NCBI GenBank assembly: GCA_021845865.1
Contig: JAJZVC010000009.1
Coordinates: 8,218 to 72,217, forward strand
Length of the DNA: 64,000 nucleotides
Direction: 5' to 3'
From: Pseudomonadota bacterium
Lineage (GTDB): Bacteria; Pseudomonadota; Gammaproteobacteria; Burkholderiales; UBA9220
This document shows positions 8,841 to 24,599 of the stretch, piece by piece; position 1 is the first letter of the stretch, and each line of letters opens with the position of its first letter. The position numbers and the translations under genes are program-made. Below the pieces are notes generated by a model. The model was not told the origin of the DNA. It did no database searches and was given only the letters and a program-made list of their open reading frames with translations.

Positions 8841-9832
8841 TCCGCAGTGACGGGTTCGCCCTGGTGATACCAGAAGGGGCGGGTTCCAGGCAATTTTTCC
8901 TCATCGTAGCTGGCTCCGGCAGTTTGCCAGTCCCGGCATCCCTGACAGATGGACGGCAAGGCATTCCAGCGGTGTTCCCGGTGGGGAGTGCGGACAGCCG
9001 CCCCTAGGCGTTGCCAGGCTTCCTTGACGGAGAGCGTGTCACCGATGGCGCCGACGCTGAAGAGTCCTTCGTAATCCACGGCGCAGGTCACGACCTTGCC
9101 ATCCTGGTGGATGGCCATGGTGTTGTTGCCCCAGGGACAGGCGATGCGGAAATCGGAATCGTGGTCAATGTTGGGCGCATGCACCACGCCGCCCCATTCC
9201 AGTTGCGGGCGTACCTTGACCTCGGCACCACGCTCCTGCCAGTGGCGGCGATATTCCTCCACCTCGTGGCCGTTGATGTCCTGAAGCACGGAGAACTGGC
9301 AGATGATGGCGGGGTAGGCCTGTCCCCTCTGGGCTTTCCGGTTCAGCAGATTTTCGACCTGGGCGTAAATCTTTTCCCTCTTTCCCCCTACCCGGACTTT
9401 CTCGTAGGTTTCGGTGCTGAAGCCGTCAATGGAAAGAATGAAGCGCTTGAGTGGGGACTCCAGTACCCGCTCGATGTTGTCCCAGCGATCGAGCAGCATG
9501 GCGTTGGAGTTGAGCACCAGGTTGTTGCAGCCCACCTTGGCGGCGTAGTCGAGCCGGTTCCACAGTTCGTTGTCCTTGGCGAGAATCAGCGCTTCGCCGT
9601 AGAACGTCGGCCAGAGCTCGGTGCCGGGCGACTCGCGCCCCACTTCCTCGACGATCCGGTTCCACAGCTGCCGTTCCATGTGCTTTTTGGGGCGCACCAG
9701 GTTGCGGTGGTTGCAGTGGATGCACTTCTGGTTGCAATAGCTGGTGTTTTCCACCACTAGCTGAGGCGGAAAGGGGTGTTCCACGAGTTGGGACTCAATG
9801 GCAAGAAGTTTGTCTTGATGGGCTCTATCCAT
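8831..9832 (-). CDS. Radical SAM enzyme with C-terminal SPASM/twitch-like Cys cluster (paralog B)
   Basis: 333-aa ORF with SYCNQKCIHCNH and C-terminal IACPW...GKVVTCAVD...ICQGCRDW. It overlaps the downstream paralog by 10 nt. Confidence 0.85.
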   Translation of the reverse strand: MDRAHQDKLLAIESQLVEHPFPPQLVVENTSYCNQKCIHCNHRNLVRPKKHMERQLWNRIVEEVGRESPGTELWPTFYGEALILAKDNELWNRLDYAAKVGCNNLVLNSNAMLLDRWDNIERVLESPLKRFILSIDGFSTETYEKVRVGGKREKIYAQVENLLNRKAQRGQAYPAIICQFSVLQDINGHEVEEYRRHWQERGAEVKVRPQLEWGGVVHAPNIDHDSDFRIACPWGNNTMAIHQDGKVVTCAVDYEGLFSVGAIGDTLSVKEAWQRLGAAVRTPHREHRWNALPSICQGCRDWQTAGASYDEEKLPGTRPFWYHQGEPVTAECP

Positions 9833-11816
9833 GGGGTAGCGCGCTCATTTTGCTAGTGGTGATTTCCTCGATATGGACTAGTAAGGTACGTGCCATTTCT
9901 GCGATGTCCATAACGAATGCCTCAACAAACTCCTGTCCTGCATGGCCTACGGCATCCCTGAAAGGTTTATCGTCAATGAGGCGTAACGCCATCTTCGTGT
10001 ATTCCTGATTATTAGTGGCGCAAAGGAAAAGCGTTTCCCCATTTTCGGCGGTGTATATGTGTTGGGCGCGCTCTCGTTTGTCAGGGGTGCCTACCTGCCC
10101 ATTTAGCAAGGGTAAGATCACCATGGGAACACCGCTTTCCATCGCCTCGGGACTCAGGTGGAATACTGTCGGCTTGCCTGCGGCCATGCACTCGAATACC
10201 GTGATCCCGCCGCCGAAGGGGAAAGTGTCGAGGCAAACATCCAGTACCTGGGCGTAAAGCCGAGTGTCGATCCAGCCCACGAAAAAGCATCGATCCGCTA
10301 CGCCGGCCCTTTCAAAACATTCCTGGATTCGCGGCAAACGGGATTGGCCGCTCCACAGAAAACCTGTATCGGGACGTGCCTGTAGAATATCGGCTACGGC
10401 GTCGAGATATTGAGGGTTGTCCAGTTTTTCCACGCGGCCCATGCAGCCCAGCAGGGTTTTCACTGGAAACTGCTGTCGAATTTTTCTTGCTTGATTGTTC
10501 AGGTCGGCGTCATAAAGATCGCCTACTGCACCATGAACGCACCGCCAGTTGCGGCTGCCGATACGTTTGAATTTTTCCAGGGTGCCGAGGGCGAAATAGC
10601 CGTCGATGTCCTCGAGTTCGACACTGTGGTATTTCATGGACCACCAGATTTGCGCCGGGGCCAAGCGAAGACCGAAGGCAAAGGACATATGTGCGATGTT
10701 GGTTGCCCACAGGATGGCGGCTGTGCCGTCGTTTGCCAAACGTCGCCGCAGTTCCAGCAACAACTGGTAGGCCATGCCGCGCAGGTGGGGACACTCGTCG
10801 CTCAGGGCGACGATGCGGACACCTGTGTCGAGGAAGGAGGAAAGGGCGCGTTGGTCCACATCGCTCAATACATATACCGATACGGCGCGGCTGGTTTGGT
10901 CCATGCTGCGCAGAGCGTCCAAAAGCACCCGGTTTGGCCCGAGGGAATCAAGATGATGGACGACAAAAGCCACGCTGGCGGTATTGGGATTGGCCGGTGA
11001 AGGTGTTGGAGGAAGCCGGTTACGCAGTTGGCGTCCTGCCCCGTTCATGAGGGGGGCGACAGTCCGGTAATGGCGGGCGTAGTGTTCCTCGGTTTCGGTC
11101 TGATGGACATAGCGCAGATCAAGCTGTAATTCGAGCCAAAGGGCGAGATCGAACCATTCCCGTTCCAGAGCTTGTTGCAGCCAGGGGAGGACAAGGGTCT
11201 CCACCGTTGTCCGATTGTCCGTTGCCGGGGTATTGAGGGACAGGCCCACCAAGTCCATGAGGTAGCGGATAGCGGCGTGGGCCGTCGCCTCGTTGGAACT
11301 ATTGGTGATCACGTTCCGGCTGTGGAGCTGTTCGAGCAAGCTGGAGCGGAGAAGGGCGGCCTGCGGTCGGGCATGCAGCAGTTTCAAATAGTTCTCGAAA
11401 TAGACGGAGGGTTCCGTCAGGGCTTGAGGGGCGATGGTGGCCACTTGAGCCAAATTCAGCAACATCTCCCCCGTATCAGCCGCATGCCCTCTCTGCTTCA
11501 GGAAAAGTTTGAACCCTAATTCAAAAGCGGAAATTGCCTCGTTGACGTGCCCTAATCCTGTGAGAACTTGGCCGAGATTGCAACAATAGACGGGGTCTTC
11601 CGGGGAAAACGTTACTGCTTGGACGGCATAAGGCAATGCCTGGCTCGCAAAGCCTAGCCGACTAAGTATGACCGCCTTGAGGTTGAGGGCGGGCGGTGCG
11701 TCTGGTGCTATGGCCAGCAGAGGGTCTAATAGCTCATTGGCTTCGCTGAGTCGTTCCTGACGGAAATATCCCAGGGCACGGTTGAACAGGTCGTTGGCTC
11801 GTTCTTGCGGGTGCAT
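9825..11816 (-). CDS. TPR-repeat protein with GT41/OGT-like C-terminal glycosyltransferase region
   Basis: 663-aa ORF with N-terminal TPR-like repeats (ANDLFNRALGYFRQERLSEANELLDPLLAIAPDAPPALNLKAVILSRLG). The C-terminal DVCLDTFPFGGGITVFECMAAGKPTV resembles DLFLDTLPYNAGTTASDALWAGVPVL of 61847-63829. Confidence 0.65.
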   Translation of the reverse strand: MHPQERANDLFNRALGYFRQERLSEANELLDPLLAIAPDAPPALNLKAVILSRLGFASQALPYAVQAVTFSPEDPVYCCNLGQVLTGLGHVNEAISAFELGFKLFLKQRGHAADTGEMLLNLAQVATIAPQALTEPSVYFENYLKLLHARPQAALLRSSLLEQLHSRNVITNSSNEATAHAAIRYLMDLVGLSLNTPATDNRTTVETLVLPWLQQALEREWFDLALWLELQLDLRYVHQTETEEHYARHYRTVAPLMNGAGRQLRNRLPPTPSPANPNTASVAFVVHHLDSLGPNRVLLDALRSMDQTSRAVSVYVLSDVDQRALSSFLDTGVRIVALSDECPHLRGMAYQLLLELRRRLANDGTAAILWATNIAHMSFAFGLRLAPAQIWWSMKYHSVELEDIDGYFALGTLEKFKRIGSRNWRCVHGAVGDLYDADLNNQARKIRQQFPVKTLLGCMGRVEKLDNPQYLDAVADILQARPDTGFLWSGQSRLPRIQECFERAGVADRCFFVGWIDTRLYAQVLDVCLDTFPFGGGITVFECMAAGKPTVFHLSPEAMESGVPMVILPLLNGQVGTPDKRERAQHIYTAENGETLFLCATNNQEYTKMALRLIDDKPFRDAVGHAGQEFVEAFVMDIAEMARTLLVHIEEITTSKMSALPHG

Positions 11817-11822
11817 GCGGGG

Positions 11823-23037: not shown

Positions 23038-23129
23038 GAGTGGCGAAATTTTGTCGAGAACATCTTTGTATGGCCCGCAAGACGGTTGACATAACGTTAT
23101 CCTACATCCTGTTGGAGAATAGAGAATAA

Positions 23130-24599
23130 ATGGATTTCCAAACCCATGTGATTAAAGGGAACGAGTTTTTCCAGAACGGCTTGTTGGACCAGGCCGCAGC
23201 AAGCTACCGGGAGGCATTGGCGGGGGAGCCGGGTTCGGCGGACGCCCTGCATGGTTTGGGGTTGGTGGAATGGCGCCGCGGTCACTTCGACCAGGCGCTG
23301 AAGTATCTTGTTCAGGCAGAGCAGCATGCTCCCGAATCCCCCGATGTGCTCAATTCCCTCGGCGAAGTGTACCGGCTGGTGGGCGATGTGGCGAAATCCC
23401 GCGAGGTGCTGAACCGGGCCATCAAGTTGAATCCTTCTTTTGCGCTGGCCTACAACAACCTGGGGATGAGTTATTTGGCTCAGGACGACTTCCGCCAGGC
23501 GCTGGCTTATTTTTCCAGCGCCACCCAACTGGATTCAAGCCTTGCCATGGCCCATTTCAACCAGGGCATCGCTTTCAAGGAACTGGGCCTCGTTGAGGAA
23601 GCCATTGCCGCTTTGCGGCAAGCCGTCAAAATCGCGCCGGATTTTGCCGAGGCCCATTTGAACCTCGCCATTGCCTTGCTGCTTTCCGGGCAGATGCTGG
23701 AAGGCTTCGAAGAGTACGAATGGCGGAATCGGATATCAACTCCCCCGGTCTTCGATAGCCCTCCGTGGGATGGAACGGTGGACCCCAAGGGAACGCTGCT
23801 GGTGTACGCGGAACAGGGCCTGGGGGACACGCTGCAATTCATCCGCTTCATCCCCTTCATCGCTGCCCAGGGCATGCGCGTGATTGTGCAATGTCCCCCC
23901 GCCCTGGAGAATCTTCTGCAGGGCGTGGAGGGGGTATCCATGACCTATCGTCAAGACGAGGCGCTACCTCCCCACTCCGCCCATGTTTCCCTGATGAGCC
24001 TGCCCCGACTGTTTCAGGTGCACCTGGGCAAGGTGCCGGCCAATGTCCCCTACATCACCACGCCGTTCTCCAAGATCGTGGCCTGGAAGGAAGCCTTGAC
24101 CCCATTCCGCGACACCATCTGCATCGGCCTGCGCTGGGCGGGAAACCCGGACAACACCCAGGACCGGGGACGGTCCATTCCCCTGAAACTGTTCGAGGCC
24201 CTGGCGGATATCCCCAATGTGACCTGGGTCAGCCTCCAGGCCAATCCCTTGTCGGAGGAAGAGCGGCAGAGCGCAGAAAAGCTCGGCTTGAAGGATTTTT
24301 CCGATCGTCTCGCCGATTTCACGGATACCGCCGCATTGGTCGAGCAACTGGACTTGGTGATTTCCGTCGATACCGCCGTCCTGCATTTGGCCGGCGCCTT
24401 GGGGCGGCCCGTGTGGGGATTGCTGAAAGCGTCGCCCCACTGGCCCTGGCTGCTGGAACGGGACGATTCCCCCTGGTATCCCAGCGCCCGTTTGTTCCGC
24501 CAGAAGGCCGCGGGGGACTGGAAAGCCGTTGTAGGCCAATTGACCTCTCTCCTGCAGGAAGTCATGCAGAGCATACGCGAAGAAAAACAACCTTCCTGA
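23130..24599 (+). CDS. TPR-repeat protein fused to a GT9 (heptosyltransferase-like) domain; candidate flagellin glycosyltransferase
   Basis: 489-aa ORF with TPRs ([39 protein letters not shown]). The C-terminus has [18 protein letters not shown] and [25 protein letters not shown]. It sits 7 nt upstream of pseB. Confidence 0.7.

Follow-up and report, generated by a model that had tools for sequence, protein, structure and literature searches.

How flagellin would be glycosylated at a locus that encodes a pseudaminic acid (Pse) pathway beside its flagellin gene and no recognisable motility accessory factor (Maf) is the question raised by a 64,000-nt stretch of bacterial DNA (GenBank assembly GCA_021845865.1, contig JAJZVC010000009.1, positions 8,218 to 72,217 of the forward strand; hereafter the window, numbered from its first letter). 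The window contains, from its left edge to ~36.2 kb, a flagellin modification island, as delimited from a listing of open reading frames (ORFs) and from Pfam and NCBIfam scans, and several proteins of this island begin with a tetratricopeptide repeat (TPR) array and end in a catalytic domain. We refer to these as A (9825-11816), B (12909-14867), C (20785-23037), D (23130-24599) and F (the gene whose end lies at 2-613), to a TPR protein further right in the window as E (61847-63829), to a 1587-aa protein at 31471-36234 as G, and to three TPR proteins on an overlapping contig as U724, U690 and U633. Our answer centers on D, the first gene of the pse operon, which aligns from end to end with FlmG, the TPR-containing flagellin glycosyltransferase of Caulobacter crescentus. 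We assign a probability of roughly 0.6 to the broader reading that the island consists of modules, each formed by a soluble TPR-tethered enzyme and its own donor operon, that decorate flagellin.

D and its resemblance to FlmG

D (23130-24599, + strand) consists of a TPR region (residues 1-190) followed by a FlmG-type GT-B domain, and is a candidate flagellin glycosyltransferase. The FlmG sequence used for comparison was obtained by means of the cloning primer FlmG_N, listed in the supplement of an eLife paper, which was located in a genome collection at a Caulobacter vibrioides locus; the FlmG read from this locus has 596 aa and its gene adjoins a flagellin gene. Pairwise alignment of full-length D with FlmG, a check proposed in the initial annotation of the window, resulted in 28% identity over 490 aa (E 4e-37 to 5e-36), with collinearity of the two proteins across the TPR region and the entire C-terminal domain, common motifs EQGLGD/EQGxGD and PWYPSxRxF, and an N-terminus of D that is ~100 residues shorter than that of FlmG. 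The glycosyltransferase domain of D alone also matched FlmG (28% over 307 aa, E 1e-19). An AlphaFold2 (AF2) model of D (predicted local distance difference test, pLDDT, 94; predicted template modeling score, pTM, 0.90) shows ~6 TPR pairs forming a superhelix that leads into a two-lobed, Rossmann-like GT-B domain. A Foldseek search of the PDB with the full model returned SPY, OGT and designed TPR proteins; these matches are driven by the TPR array, and this comparison therefore confirms the architecture and does not place the catalytic domain.

D had been labeled GT9-like, and a GT9-type catalytic domain in Pse transfer had accordingly been regarded as unusual, but neither point held up. Pfam gave D a local match to PF01075 at residues 396-437 (E 1e-6, 28.5 bits), a faint resemblance over 42 residues, and D reached 27 bits against the NCBIfam heptosyltransferase I model, the cut-off of which is 185. 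A Pfam scan of FlmG gave no match to PF01075, and a profile of the stand-alone FlmG-type domain retrieved nothing from the PDB at E<=0.1 and no heptosyltransferase at E<=1. The assignment of D to the GT9 heptosyltransferase family was dropped in view of the short Pfam match, the low NCBIfam score and the lack of a PDB heptosyltransferase. As FlmG itself carries the D-type catalytic domain, there is nothing unusual about such a domain in Pse transfer.

The genes around D supply both a putative donor and a presumed acceptor. Only 7 nt separate D from pseB, and fliC follows 11.8 kb further downstream in the same orientation. The pse pathway (24607-30196, +) comprises pseB, pseC, pseF, pseG, a formyltransferase-like gene and pseI as assigned by Pfam, with PseG matching TIGR03590 at E 1e-89. 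The slot between pseG and pseI is usually occupied by pseH, which encodes a GNAT acetyltransferase; in the window this slot holds the formyltransferase-like gene (28497-29147, +; Formyl_trans_N, E 3e-9), a hint that the pseudaminic acid may be N-formylated rather than N-acetylated.

This arrangement recurs in other betaproteobacteria. An ortholog 63% identical to D lies between pseC and pseF on a Nitrosomonadales contig (L013), where the order is flagellin, pseB, pseC, D ortholog, pseF, pseG, pseI, sugar genes, a methyltransferase and a 1584-aa G ortholog. On a Rhodocyclaceae contig (L014) the ortholog is 58% identical and lies in front of pseB, at a distance of 3.5 kb from flagellin and flaG; here flaG and flagellin are followed divergently by genes for a FlmG-like TPR protein and a TPR-GT41, the D ortholog, pseBCFG, a methyltransferase, pseI, a second methyltransferase and the G ortholog. 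The linkage of D, the pse genes, G and flagellin is conserved across betaproteobacterial families, and this conserved synteny is, besides homology, the chief functional evidence for D. From these two lines of evidence we infer that D is a FlmG-family glycosyltransferase with flagellin as its acceptor. The collinearity with FlmG and the orthologs inside pse operons beside flagellin support the proposal, made from the sequence of the window, that D, encoded at the head of the pse operon, is the strongest candidate for the Pse transferase. D shares with the FlmG class the TPR and GT-B architecture, the homology of the catalytic domain and the encoding together with pse genes and flagellin.

Among the ~60 ORFs scanned, which include all plausible ORFs of the window, none matched PF01973 (MAF_flag10), in agreement with the initial annotation, which had noted no Maf-like ORF. 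A candidate at 51578-52159 (-), which matches PF02545 and bears the name 'Maf', was rejected as the missing transferase; this is an unrelated family of septum-formation/nucleotide pyrophosphatase proteins and the shared name is a trap.

The catalytic domain of D belongs to a family with >7,400 matches, named 'tetratricopeptide repeat-containing glycosyltransferase family protein' by NCBI. Tandem arrays of TPR-FlmG-type and TPR-GT41 genes were also seen far from flagellar genes, at L036:2087-9455 (a metagenome-assembled genome, MAG, of Tepidisphaeraceae) and L037:6478-9482, with genes of murein synthesis or of unrelated function as neighbors. Joint occurrence of the two types of TPR-transferase is thus not specific to flagellar islands.

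TPR-fused enzymes and other genes of the island

The host of the window, judging from its sequences, is a Sulfuricellaceae bacterium (Betaproteobacteria), a relative of sulfur-oxidisers; exact-sequence look-ups found near-identical proteins on Sulfuricellaceae MAG contigs in NCBI, ENA, JGI and Logan. The island genes are packed in tight operons, and the genes of 603-9832 overlap at their ends or lie within 32 nt of one another. A minus-strand operon (12761 to 603) contains a methyltransferase, A, two radical S-adenosylmethionine (rSAM)/SPASM proteins, an Asn-synthase-like amidotransferase, a carbamoyltransferase, a PglD-like acetyltransferase, WbqC, an NDP-hexose 4,6-dehydratase and a DegT aminotransferase. 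A plus-strand operon (12909 to 20744) runs from B through WbqC, a methyltransferase, a hexapeptide acyltransferase, a further methyltransferase, a PhyH dioxygenase and an unassigned ORF to DegT. C (20785-23037, -) is a single gene and its own unit, and the plus-strand operon from 23130 to 36234 contains D, the six pse-pathway genes, a 422-aa methyltransferase and G. A, B and D are found one each in three separate sugar-biosynthesis operons. Pfam shows both parts in A, B, C and D, which upholds the earlier description of four proteins with an N-terminal TPR array and a catalytic domain. As an account of the whole set, this number was too small, for contig L011 shows four more TPR-glycosyltransferase genes at and beyond the left edge of the window, one of them being full-length F, giving eight TPR-enzyme fusions in ~33 kb.

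A (9825-11816, -) has a short TPR array (approximately residues 1-105, ~3 repeats detected), a helical linker of ~150 aa and a divergent GT41-type GT-B domain, in which Pfam finds Glyco_trans_1_4 at 455-562 (E 7e-8). Neither A nor B matched PF13844, the Pfam GT41 model, and both matched Glyco_trans_1_4 only. The C-terminal motif that A and B had been said to share with the GT41 protein E is barely significant in pairwise comparison (BLAST E 0.007-0.08) and solid by profile comparison. In hhalign comparisons of catalytic-domain alignments built from homologs of A, B, GT41 and the FlmG types, the A family matched GT41 with a probability of 99.4% (E 1e-21, 335 columns, both Rossmann lobes) and was matched to the B family with a probability of 91.7%; A also matched a bacterial OGT of known structure, that of Thermobaculum (PDB 5djs, E 1e-7). 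No relation of the catalytic domains of A, B and GT41 to the FlmG type was detectable by hhalign (probability <1%). The suggestion that A and B are FlmG-like consequently stands for their architecture and not for their GT41-related catalytic domains, the true FlmG homologs being D and the fragment at 2-613.

The A family retains the Lys (in EKL) aligned with the Lys of the GT41 'FNQxxKI' motif and a DxxLD[TS]FPF...G.T loop; the equivalents in human OGT would be K842 and the phosphate loop at H920-T922. A carries DVCLDTFPFGGGIT, the Lys and the loop are conserved in 19 of 20 family members, and by its residues A looks active. The family is rare (21 clusters). The A operon has 10 genes, with A second. 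Its first gene is the methyltransferase at 11823-12761 (-; Methyltransf_23, E 3e-11), which has an ortholog in the same place on contig L008, and downstream of A are the sugar genes at 603-9832 (-), assigned by Pfam from the two rSAM/SPASM proteins to the DegT aminotransferase. The gene order on L008 is B, methyltransferase, A, rSAM, rSAM, AsnB, carbamoyltransferase, acetyltransferase, WbqC, dehydratase, DegT and an F-like gene, and A and B orthologs are found together on the same contigs. The A-type module recurs, whole or partial, on unrelated metagenome contigs: an A-like glycosyltransferase with two rSAM proteins, AsnB, WbqC, dehydratase and DegT is present on L008 and L010, and in part on L004 and L006. 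No usable information on the donor sugars, or on further flagellin glycosyltransferases of the TPR type, came from a literature search on WbqC and FlmQ.

B (12909-14867, +), which heads the second aminosugar operon, comprises a TPR array (residues 5-135), a helical linker and a highly divergent GT-B domain with a weak Glyco_trans_1_4 match at 482-574 (E 3e-4, Pfam). By hhalign the match of the B family to GT41 (probability 96.6%, E 6.5e-10) is confined to the C lobe and spans 169 columns. B is rarer still than A: a word-indexed search returned eight clusters, all at least 65% identical, and an exhaustive HMMER search of 1.84 billion representatives yielded a single 50%-identity cluster at E<=1e-30 and only 26 clusters at E<=1e-10. 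The distant relatives at E<=1e-10 are uncharacterised Glyco_trans_1_4 proteins with the common motifs HSPT, GxRLxxE and DxFLNPPRQGGG; the B clade retains the His and most of the last motif. At the basic positions aligned with GT41, B has Ala or Leu (Ala at the essential GT41 Lys), and it carries DVFLHPPAPRNGGT. Within the clade conservation is strong (65-96% identity), and numerous positions of the catalytic part do not vary. These features suggest that B may be a pseudo-enzyme or non-catalytic partner, or an enzyme with an unusual donor. The B-operon sugar genes (14842-20744, +) are those for WbqC, methyltransferase, hexapeptide acyltransferase, methyltransferase, PhyH, the unassigned ORF and DegT (Pfam); their starts were taken from the lengths of the L008 orthologs, so the start at 14842 is approximate. 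The unassigned ORF (18610-19605, +) has only faint matches to GH130/GH32 beta-propeller phosphorylases and hydrolases (E ~1e-3), which would be odd for a nucleotide-sugar pathway.

C was said to end in a methyltransferase, and it does. The protein has a TPR array (approximately residues 40-240), a middle domain of ~230 aa, a class I S-adenosylmethionine (SAM)-dependent methyltransferase and a C-terminal extension; Pfam matches the methyltransferase at 509-612 (E 1e-15) within a domain of approximately 505-710. The start at TTG 23037 merely gives the longest ORF, and one of the ATGs at 23007 and 22923 is probably the true start. The best PDB match of the methyltransferase is 8hkr (E 2e-13 over 203 residues), which is Rv2067c of Mycobacterium tuberculosis, a protein lysine methyltransferase (PMC10739865). 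It also matched Rickettsia PKMT1 (E 8e-4) and methyltransferases acting on sugars or small molecules (E 2e-9 to 1e-5). These matches make a protein substrate for C plausible; C may act instead on a sugar, by O- or N-methylation. The ~230 residues between TPR and methyltransferase had no family match, no homolog of C occurred in the fetched loci, and exact-sequence look-ups of its three alternative starts found nothing.

The left end of the island extends beyond the window. F enters the window as its 3' end at 2-613 (+), the C-terminal part of a second FlmG-family gene that crosses the left edge and encodes 536 aa in all. The earlier description of this fragment as a paralog of the C-terminal domain of D was confirmed by BLAST (40% identity, E 3e-42). 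Contig L011 is 99.6% identical to window positions 1-8497 and extends 8.3 kb further left. Its gene row is F (full length at L011:7885-9495, -; 536 aa), two TPR-GT41 genes of 724 and 690 aa (U724 and U690), U633 (a 633-aa protein with TPR and a D-type domain), a 78-aa ORF and a pyruvyl transferase. U724 and U690 match PF13844 at E 1e-70 and 2e-56, respectively. Full-length F is 33% identical to FlmG over 520 aa (E 3e-59) and its glycosyltransferase domain alone 34% (E 5e-35), while U633 is 28% identical over 545 aa (E 1e-40). A metagenome scan for orthologs of U633, aimed at extending the left flank, retrieved only relatives of 22-43% identity. On L013 the ratio of FlmG-like genes to synthases is the opposite of that in the island, with two NeuB-type synthases (13364-14434 and 18091-19137) and one FlmG-like gene within the 21 kb fetched.

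The right end of the island is formed by the 422-aa methyltransferase and G (30206-36234, +; Pfam, NCBIfam), which lie 3' of the pse operon and 5' of fliC. The two genes are conserved as a pair in all three betaproteobacterial loci (L013:21191 onward, L014:18419 onward). G (31471-36234) has an N-terminus resembling TagB and nonulosonic acid transferases, a methyltransferase domain (E 1e-35 to PDB 3cc8), GT2 domains and ~360 C-terminal residues without assignment. The flagellin gene fliC (36359-37879, +) begins 125 nt 3' of G and encodes a protein of 506 aa with Flagellin_N/C domains (Pfam), the presumed acceptor, with 34-36% Ser/Thr in the flagellin central domain. A sigma-28-type promoter-like site, TAAAGTTT-N11-GACGATAA (36244-36270, +), lies ~90 nt 5' of the fliC ATG, a near-consensus match only. 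We looked for such sites before D, B and the methyltransferase-A operon and found none there, so these glycosylation genes may lie outside the late flagellar regulon.

After fliC come flaG, fliD, fliS and a fliK-like gene, followed by housekeeping genes (glnD, map, transporters, acetyl-CoA carboxylase and a fab cluster). E (61847-63829, +), a canonical TPR-GT41 that served as comparator (PF13844, E 6e-87), lies downstream of plsX-fabH-fabD-fabF in a fatty-acid synthesis neighborhood; because of this context it was placed outside the island and rejected as a member. Several long antisense ORFs without family match were also seen, for example at 36122-37810 (-), 52165-54018 (+) and 47616-48644 (-). 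These were rejected as genes, as they lie opposite the supported fliC, carboxylase subunit and S49 peptidase genes and are an artefact of ~60% G+C.

Readings of the island

In the reading that we favor, the TPR array of D would bind unfolded or cytoplasmic flagellin, as in Caulobacter FlmG, and its GT-B domain would O-link a CMP-activated Pse derivative, made by the six genes 3' of D, to Ser or Thr of the flagellin central domain before export. The A operon would make a heavily tailored 4-amino-4,6-dideoxyhexose, and most likely A and B would each add their own sugar, either onto flagellin directly or onto Pse already attached. The operons of A and B contain a dehydratase and/or an aminotransferase together with acyl- and methyltransferases and tailoring enzymes, and the simplest reading of this is one transferase per donor pathway. 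C would most likely methylate flagellin or a partner protein, and G, the chief competitor of D for Pse transfer, would probably modify the glycan further. We infer the acceptors, the donors and the catalytic competence of the island enzymes throughout, the competence of B being especially uncertain.

A number of observations weigh against this reading. The glycosyltransferase domain of D is 43-48% identical to uncharacterised family members versus 28% to FlmG, FlmG is not among its closest relatives, and what links D to the FlmG class is therefore family membership and context, not orthology; taken together, the FlmG-type proteins of the island show 28-34% identity to FlmG versus 40-55% to uncharacterised members. 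Three family members that are 43-46% identical to D sit in non-flagellar neighborhoods, one of them in tandem with a TPR-GT41, and distant A-like genes, those on L004 and L010 among them, lack flagellar genes in the surrounding 10 kb. The island has three FlmG paralogs (D, F and U633) against one visible nonulosonic acid synthase and pathway. The B clade has Leu or Gln at residues ~462-473 where all distant relatives have the Arg of GxRL(xxE), and an AF2 model of B from 9 close sequences (pLDDT 61, catalytic part <50) is unreliable. Residues 176-266 of G weakly match NF046086, the model of a family (BFO_1060) that includes the Pse and legionaminic acid (Leg) transferases of Tannerella (E 4e-6), and G could compete with D for Pse transfer. 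Finally, the negative Maf scan covers the window, and a maf gene might lie elsewhere in the genome.

A wider version of the favored reading, in which at least eight TPR enzymes of three catalytic types (three FlmG-type, four GT41-type, two of these from very divergent lineages, and one lysine-methyltransferase-like) all act on one cytoplasmic flagellin with a donor operon each, seems doubtful to us. If it were true, the three FlmG paralogs facing one nonulosonic acid pathway would imply that the FlmG-type domain has diversified to other donors, GT41 enzymes would be flagellin glycosyltransferases, and the FlmG class would be widespread beyond the Caulobacterales.

An opposite view confines flagellin modification to D, and perhaps G, and lets A, B, C, F and the upstream GT41 proteins modify pilins, adhesins or cytoplasmic targets, or serve a general protein glycosylation or polysaccharide system that just happens to adjoin the flagellar genes. 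Such a division would accord with the pilin modified by a cyanobacterial TPR-GT41 (PMC9306852), with the tandem TPR-GT9-like and TPR-GT41 genes far from flagellar genes on L035-L037, with the A-like modules on L004 and L010 away from flagellar genes, and with the housekeeping context of E, a close relative of the upstream GT41 proteins. We nevertheless hold it to be unlikely, since an uninterrupted stretch of sugar genes, bounded by fliC-flaG-fliD-fliS, encodes all eight TPR enzymes, and since on L014 FlmG-like and GT41 genes lie between flagellin and the D ortholog. Derivatives of 4-amino-4,6-dideoxyhexose are, moreover, known flagellin glycans in Pseudomonas and Burkholderia.

Two further explanations keep flagellin as the target and distribute the tasks differently. 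A and B could extend chains on a Pse or other sugar already attached to flagellin, their TPRs keeping them in a complex with D or on flagellin instead of choosing a Ser/Thr site, and B perhaps being a non-catalytic scaffold. The polar flagellin of Aeromonas has oligosaccharide chains on a Pse linking sugar, the TPR array of A is short, B departs from its relatives at the conserved Arg, and A and B always co-occur. Set against this, the GT41 enzymes characterised so far modify side chains of proteins and not glycans, A keeps the GT41 phosphate-binding residues, and the catalytic part of B is strongly conserved across its clade, so that we regard chain extension as distinctly unlikely. More improbable still is that G is the Pse transferase by virtue of its N-terminal TagB/nonulosonic-acid-transferase-like domain, with D transferring another sugar or acting as a flagellin-binding adaptor. 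The NF046086 match, the position of G and the methyltransferase 3' of the pse operon in all three betaproteobacterial loci, and the place of G directly upstream of fliC in the window speak for this assignment; yet the match has 26 bits against a cut-off of 200 and spans only 90 residues, G has no recognisable TPR or other flagellin-binding part, and D is homologous along its full length to FlmG, which has been shown to be both required and sufficient for transferring Pse to flagellin.

Comparison with known systems

FlmG of Caulobacter binds flagellin through its TPR part (PMC7591256), and its GT-B domain sets the preference for Pse or Leg (bioRxiv 10.1101/2022.03.25.485807). It belongs to the only class of flagellin glycosyltransferases in which the acceptor (TPR) and donor (GT-B) modules have been genetically separated. 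This class was described as confined to the Caulobacterales in a 2023 preprint, and FlmG homologs in betaproteobacterial pse-flagellin operons would widen its range. TPR-tethered flagellin glycosyltransferases are already known from FlmG and from Maf-1 of Shewanella, which also has a TPR domain, and D would be a further case. GmaR of Listeria is another TPR-tethered flagellin glycosyltransferase. In the literature that we searched there is no description of an island that has three FlmG paralogs and only one visible nonulosonic acid synthase, nor of FlmG types combined with GT41-type and methyltransferase TPR fusions, each with a donor operon.

Three FlmG paralogs, four GT41-type proteins and one methyltransferase beside donor operons form a natural test of how interchangeable TPR parts are and of what sets donor specificity. 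For glyco-engineering, such an island would be a source of enzymes that are soluble, need no lipid carrier and place unusual sugars on a defined protein. These results, in which acceptor assignments are deduced, leave the general understanding of flagellin glycosylation as it was.

Compared with FlmG of C. crescentus and Brevundimonas subvibrioides, D, F and U633 are alike in being collinear and in combining TPR with a C-terminal GT-B domain, and D is likewise encoded with a Pse pathway and flagellin in a window without Maf; unlike them, the island belongs to a betaproteobacterial host and has three paralogs with one visible nonulosonic acid pathway. The Maf proteins (MAF_flag10/DUF115) of Campylobacter, Helicobacter, Aeromonas and Shewanella resemble D in the presumed cytoplasmic transfer of CMP-Pse to Ser/Thr of flagellin, but have a GT-A-type fold and are unrelated to it in sequence.

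The GT41 enzymes, including human OGT, Arabidopsis SPY, the OGT of Thermobaculum and Xanthomonas and the HMW1C N-glucosyltransferases, likewise place a TPR array before a GT-B domain that uses soluble nucleotide sugars to modify proteins. A aligns with them over both lobes and keeps the Lys and a DxxLDTxPF...GxT loop, U724, U690 and E are canonical PF13844 proteins, and the model of D resembles SPY and OGT in overall architecture. In contrast to these enzymes, A and B fall below the Pfam GT41 model, B aligns in the C lobe only and lacks the basic residue, and both genes stand in operons for tailored aminodeoxyhexoses, not for UDP-GlcNAc. C, in turn, resembles Rv2067c and PKMT1 in its class I methyltransferase domain (E 2e-13 and E 8e-4) and differs from them by adding an N-terminal TPR array and a 230-aa middle domain. 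Lysine methylation of flagellin is an established modification, for which FliB of Salmonella would be the functional analog of C.

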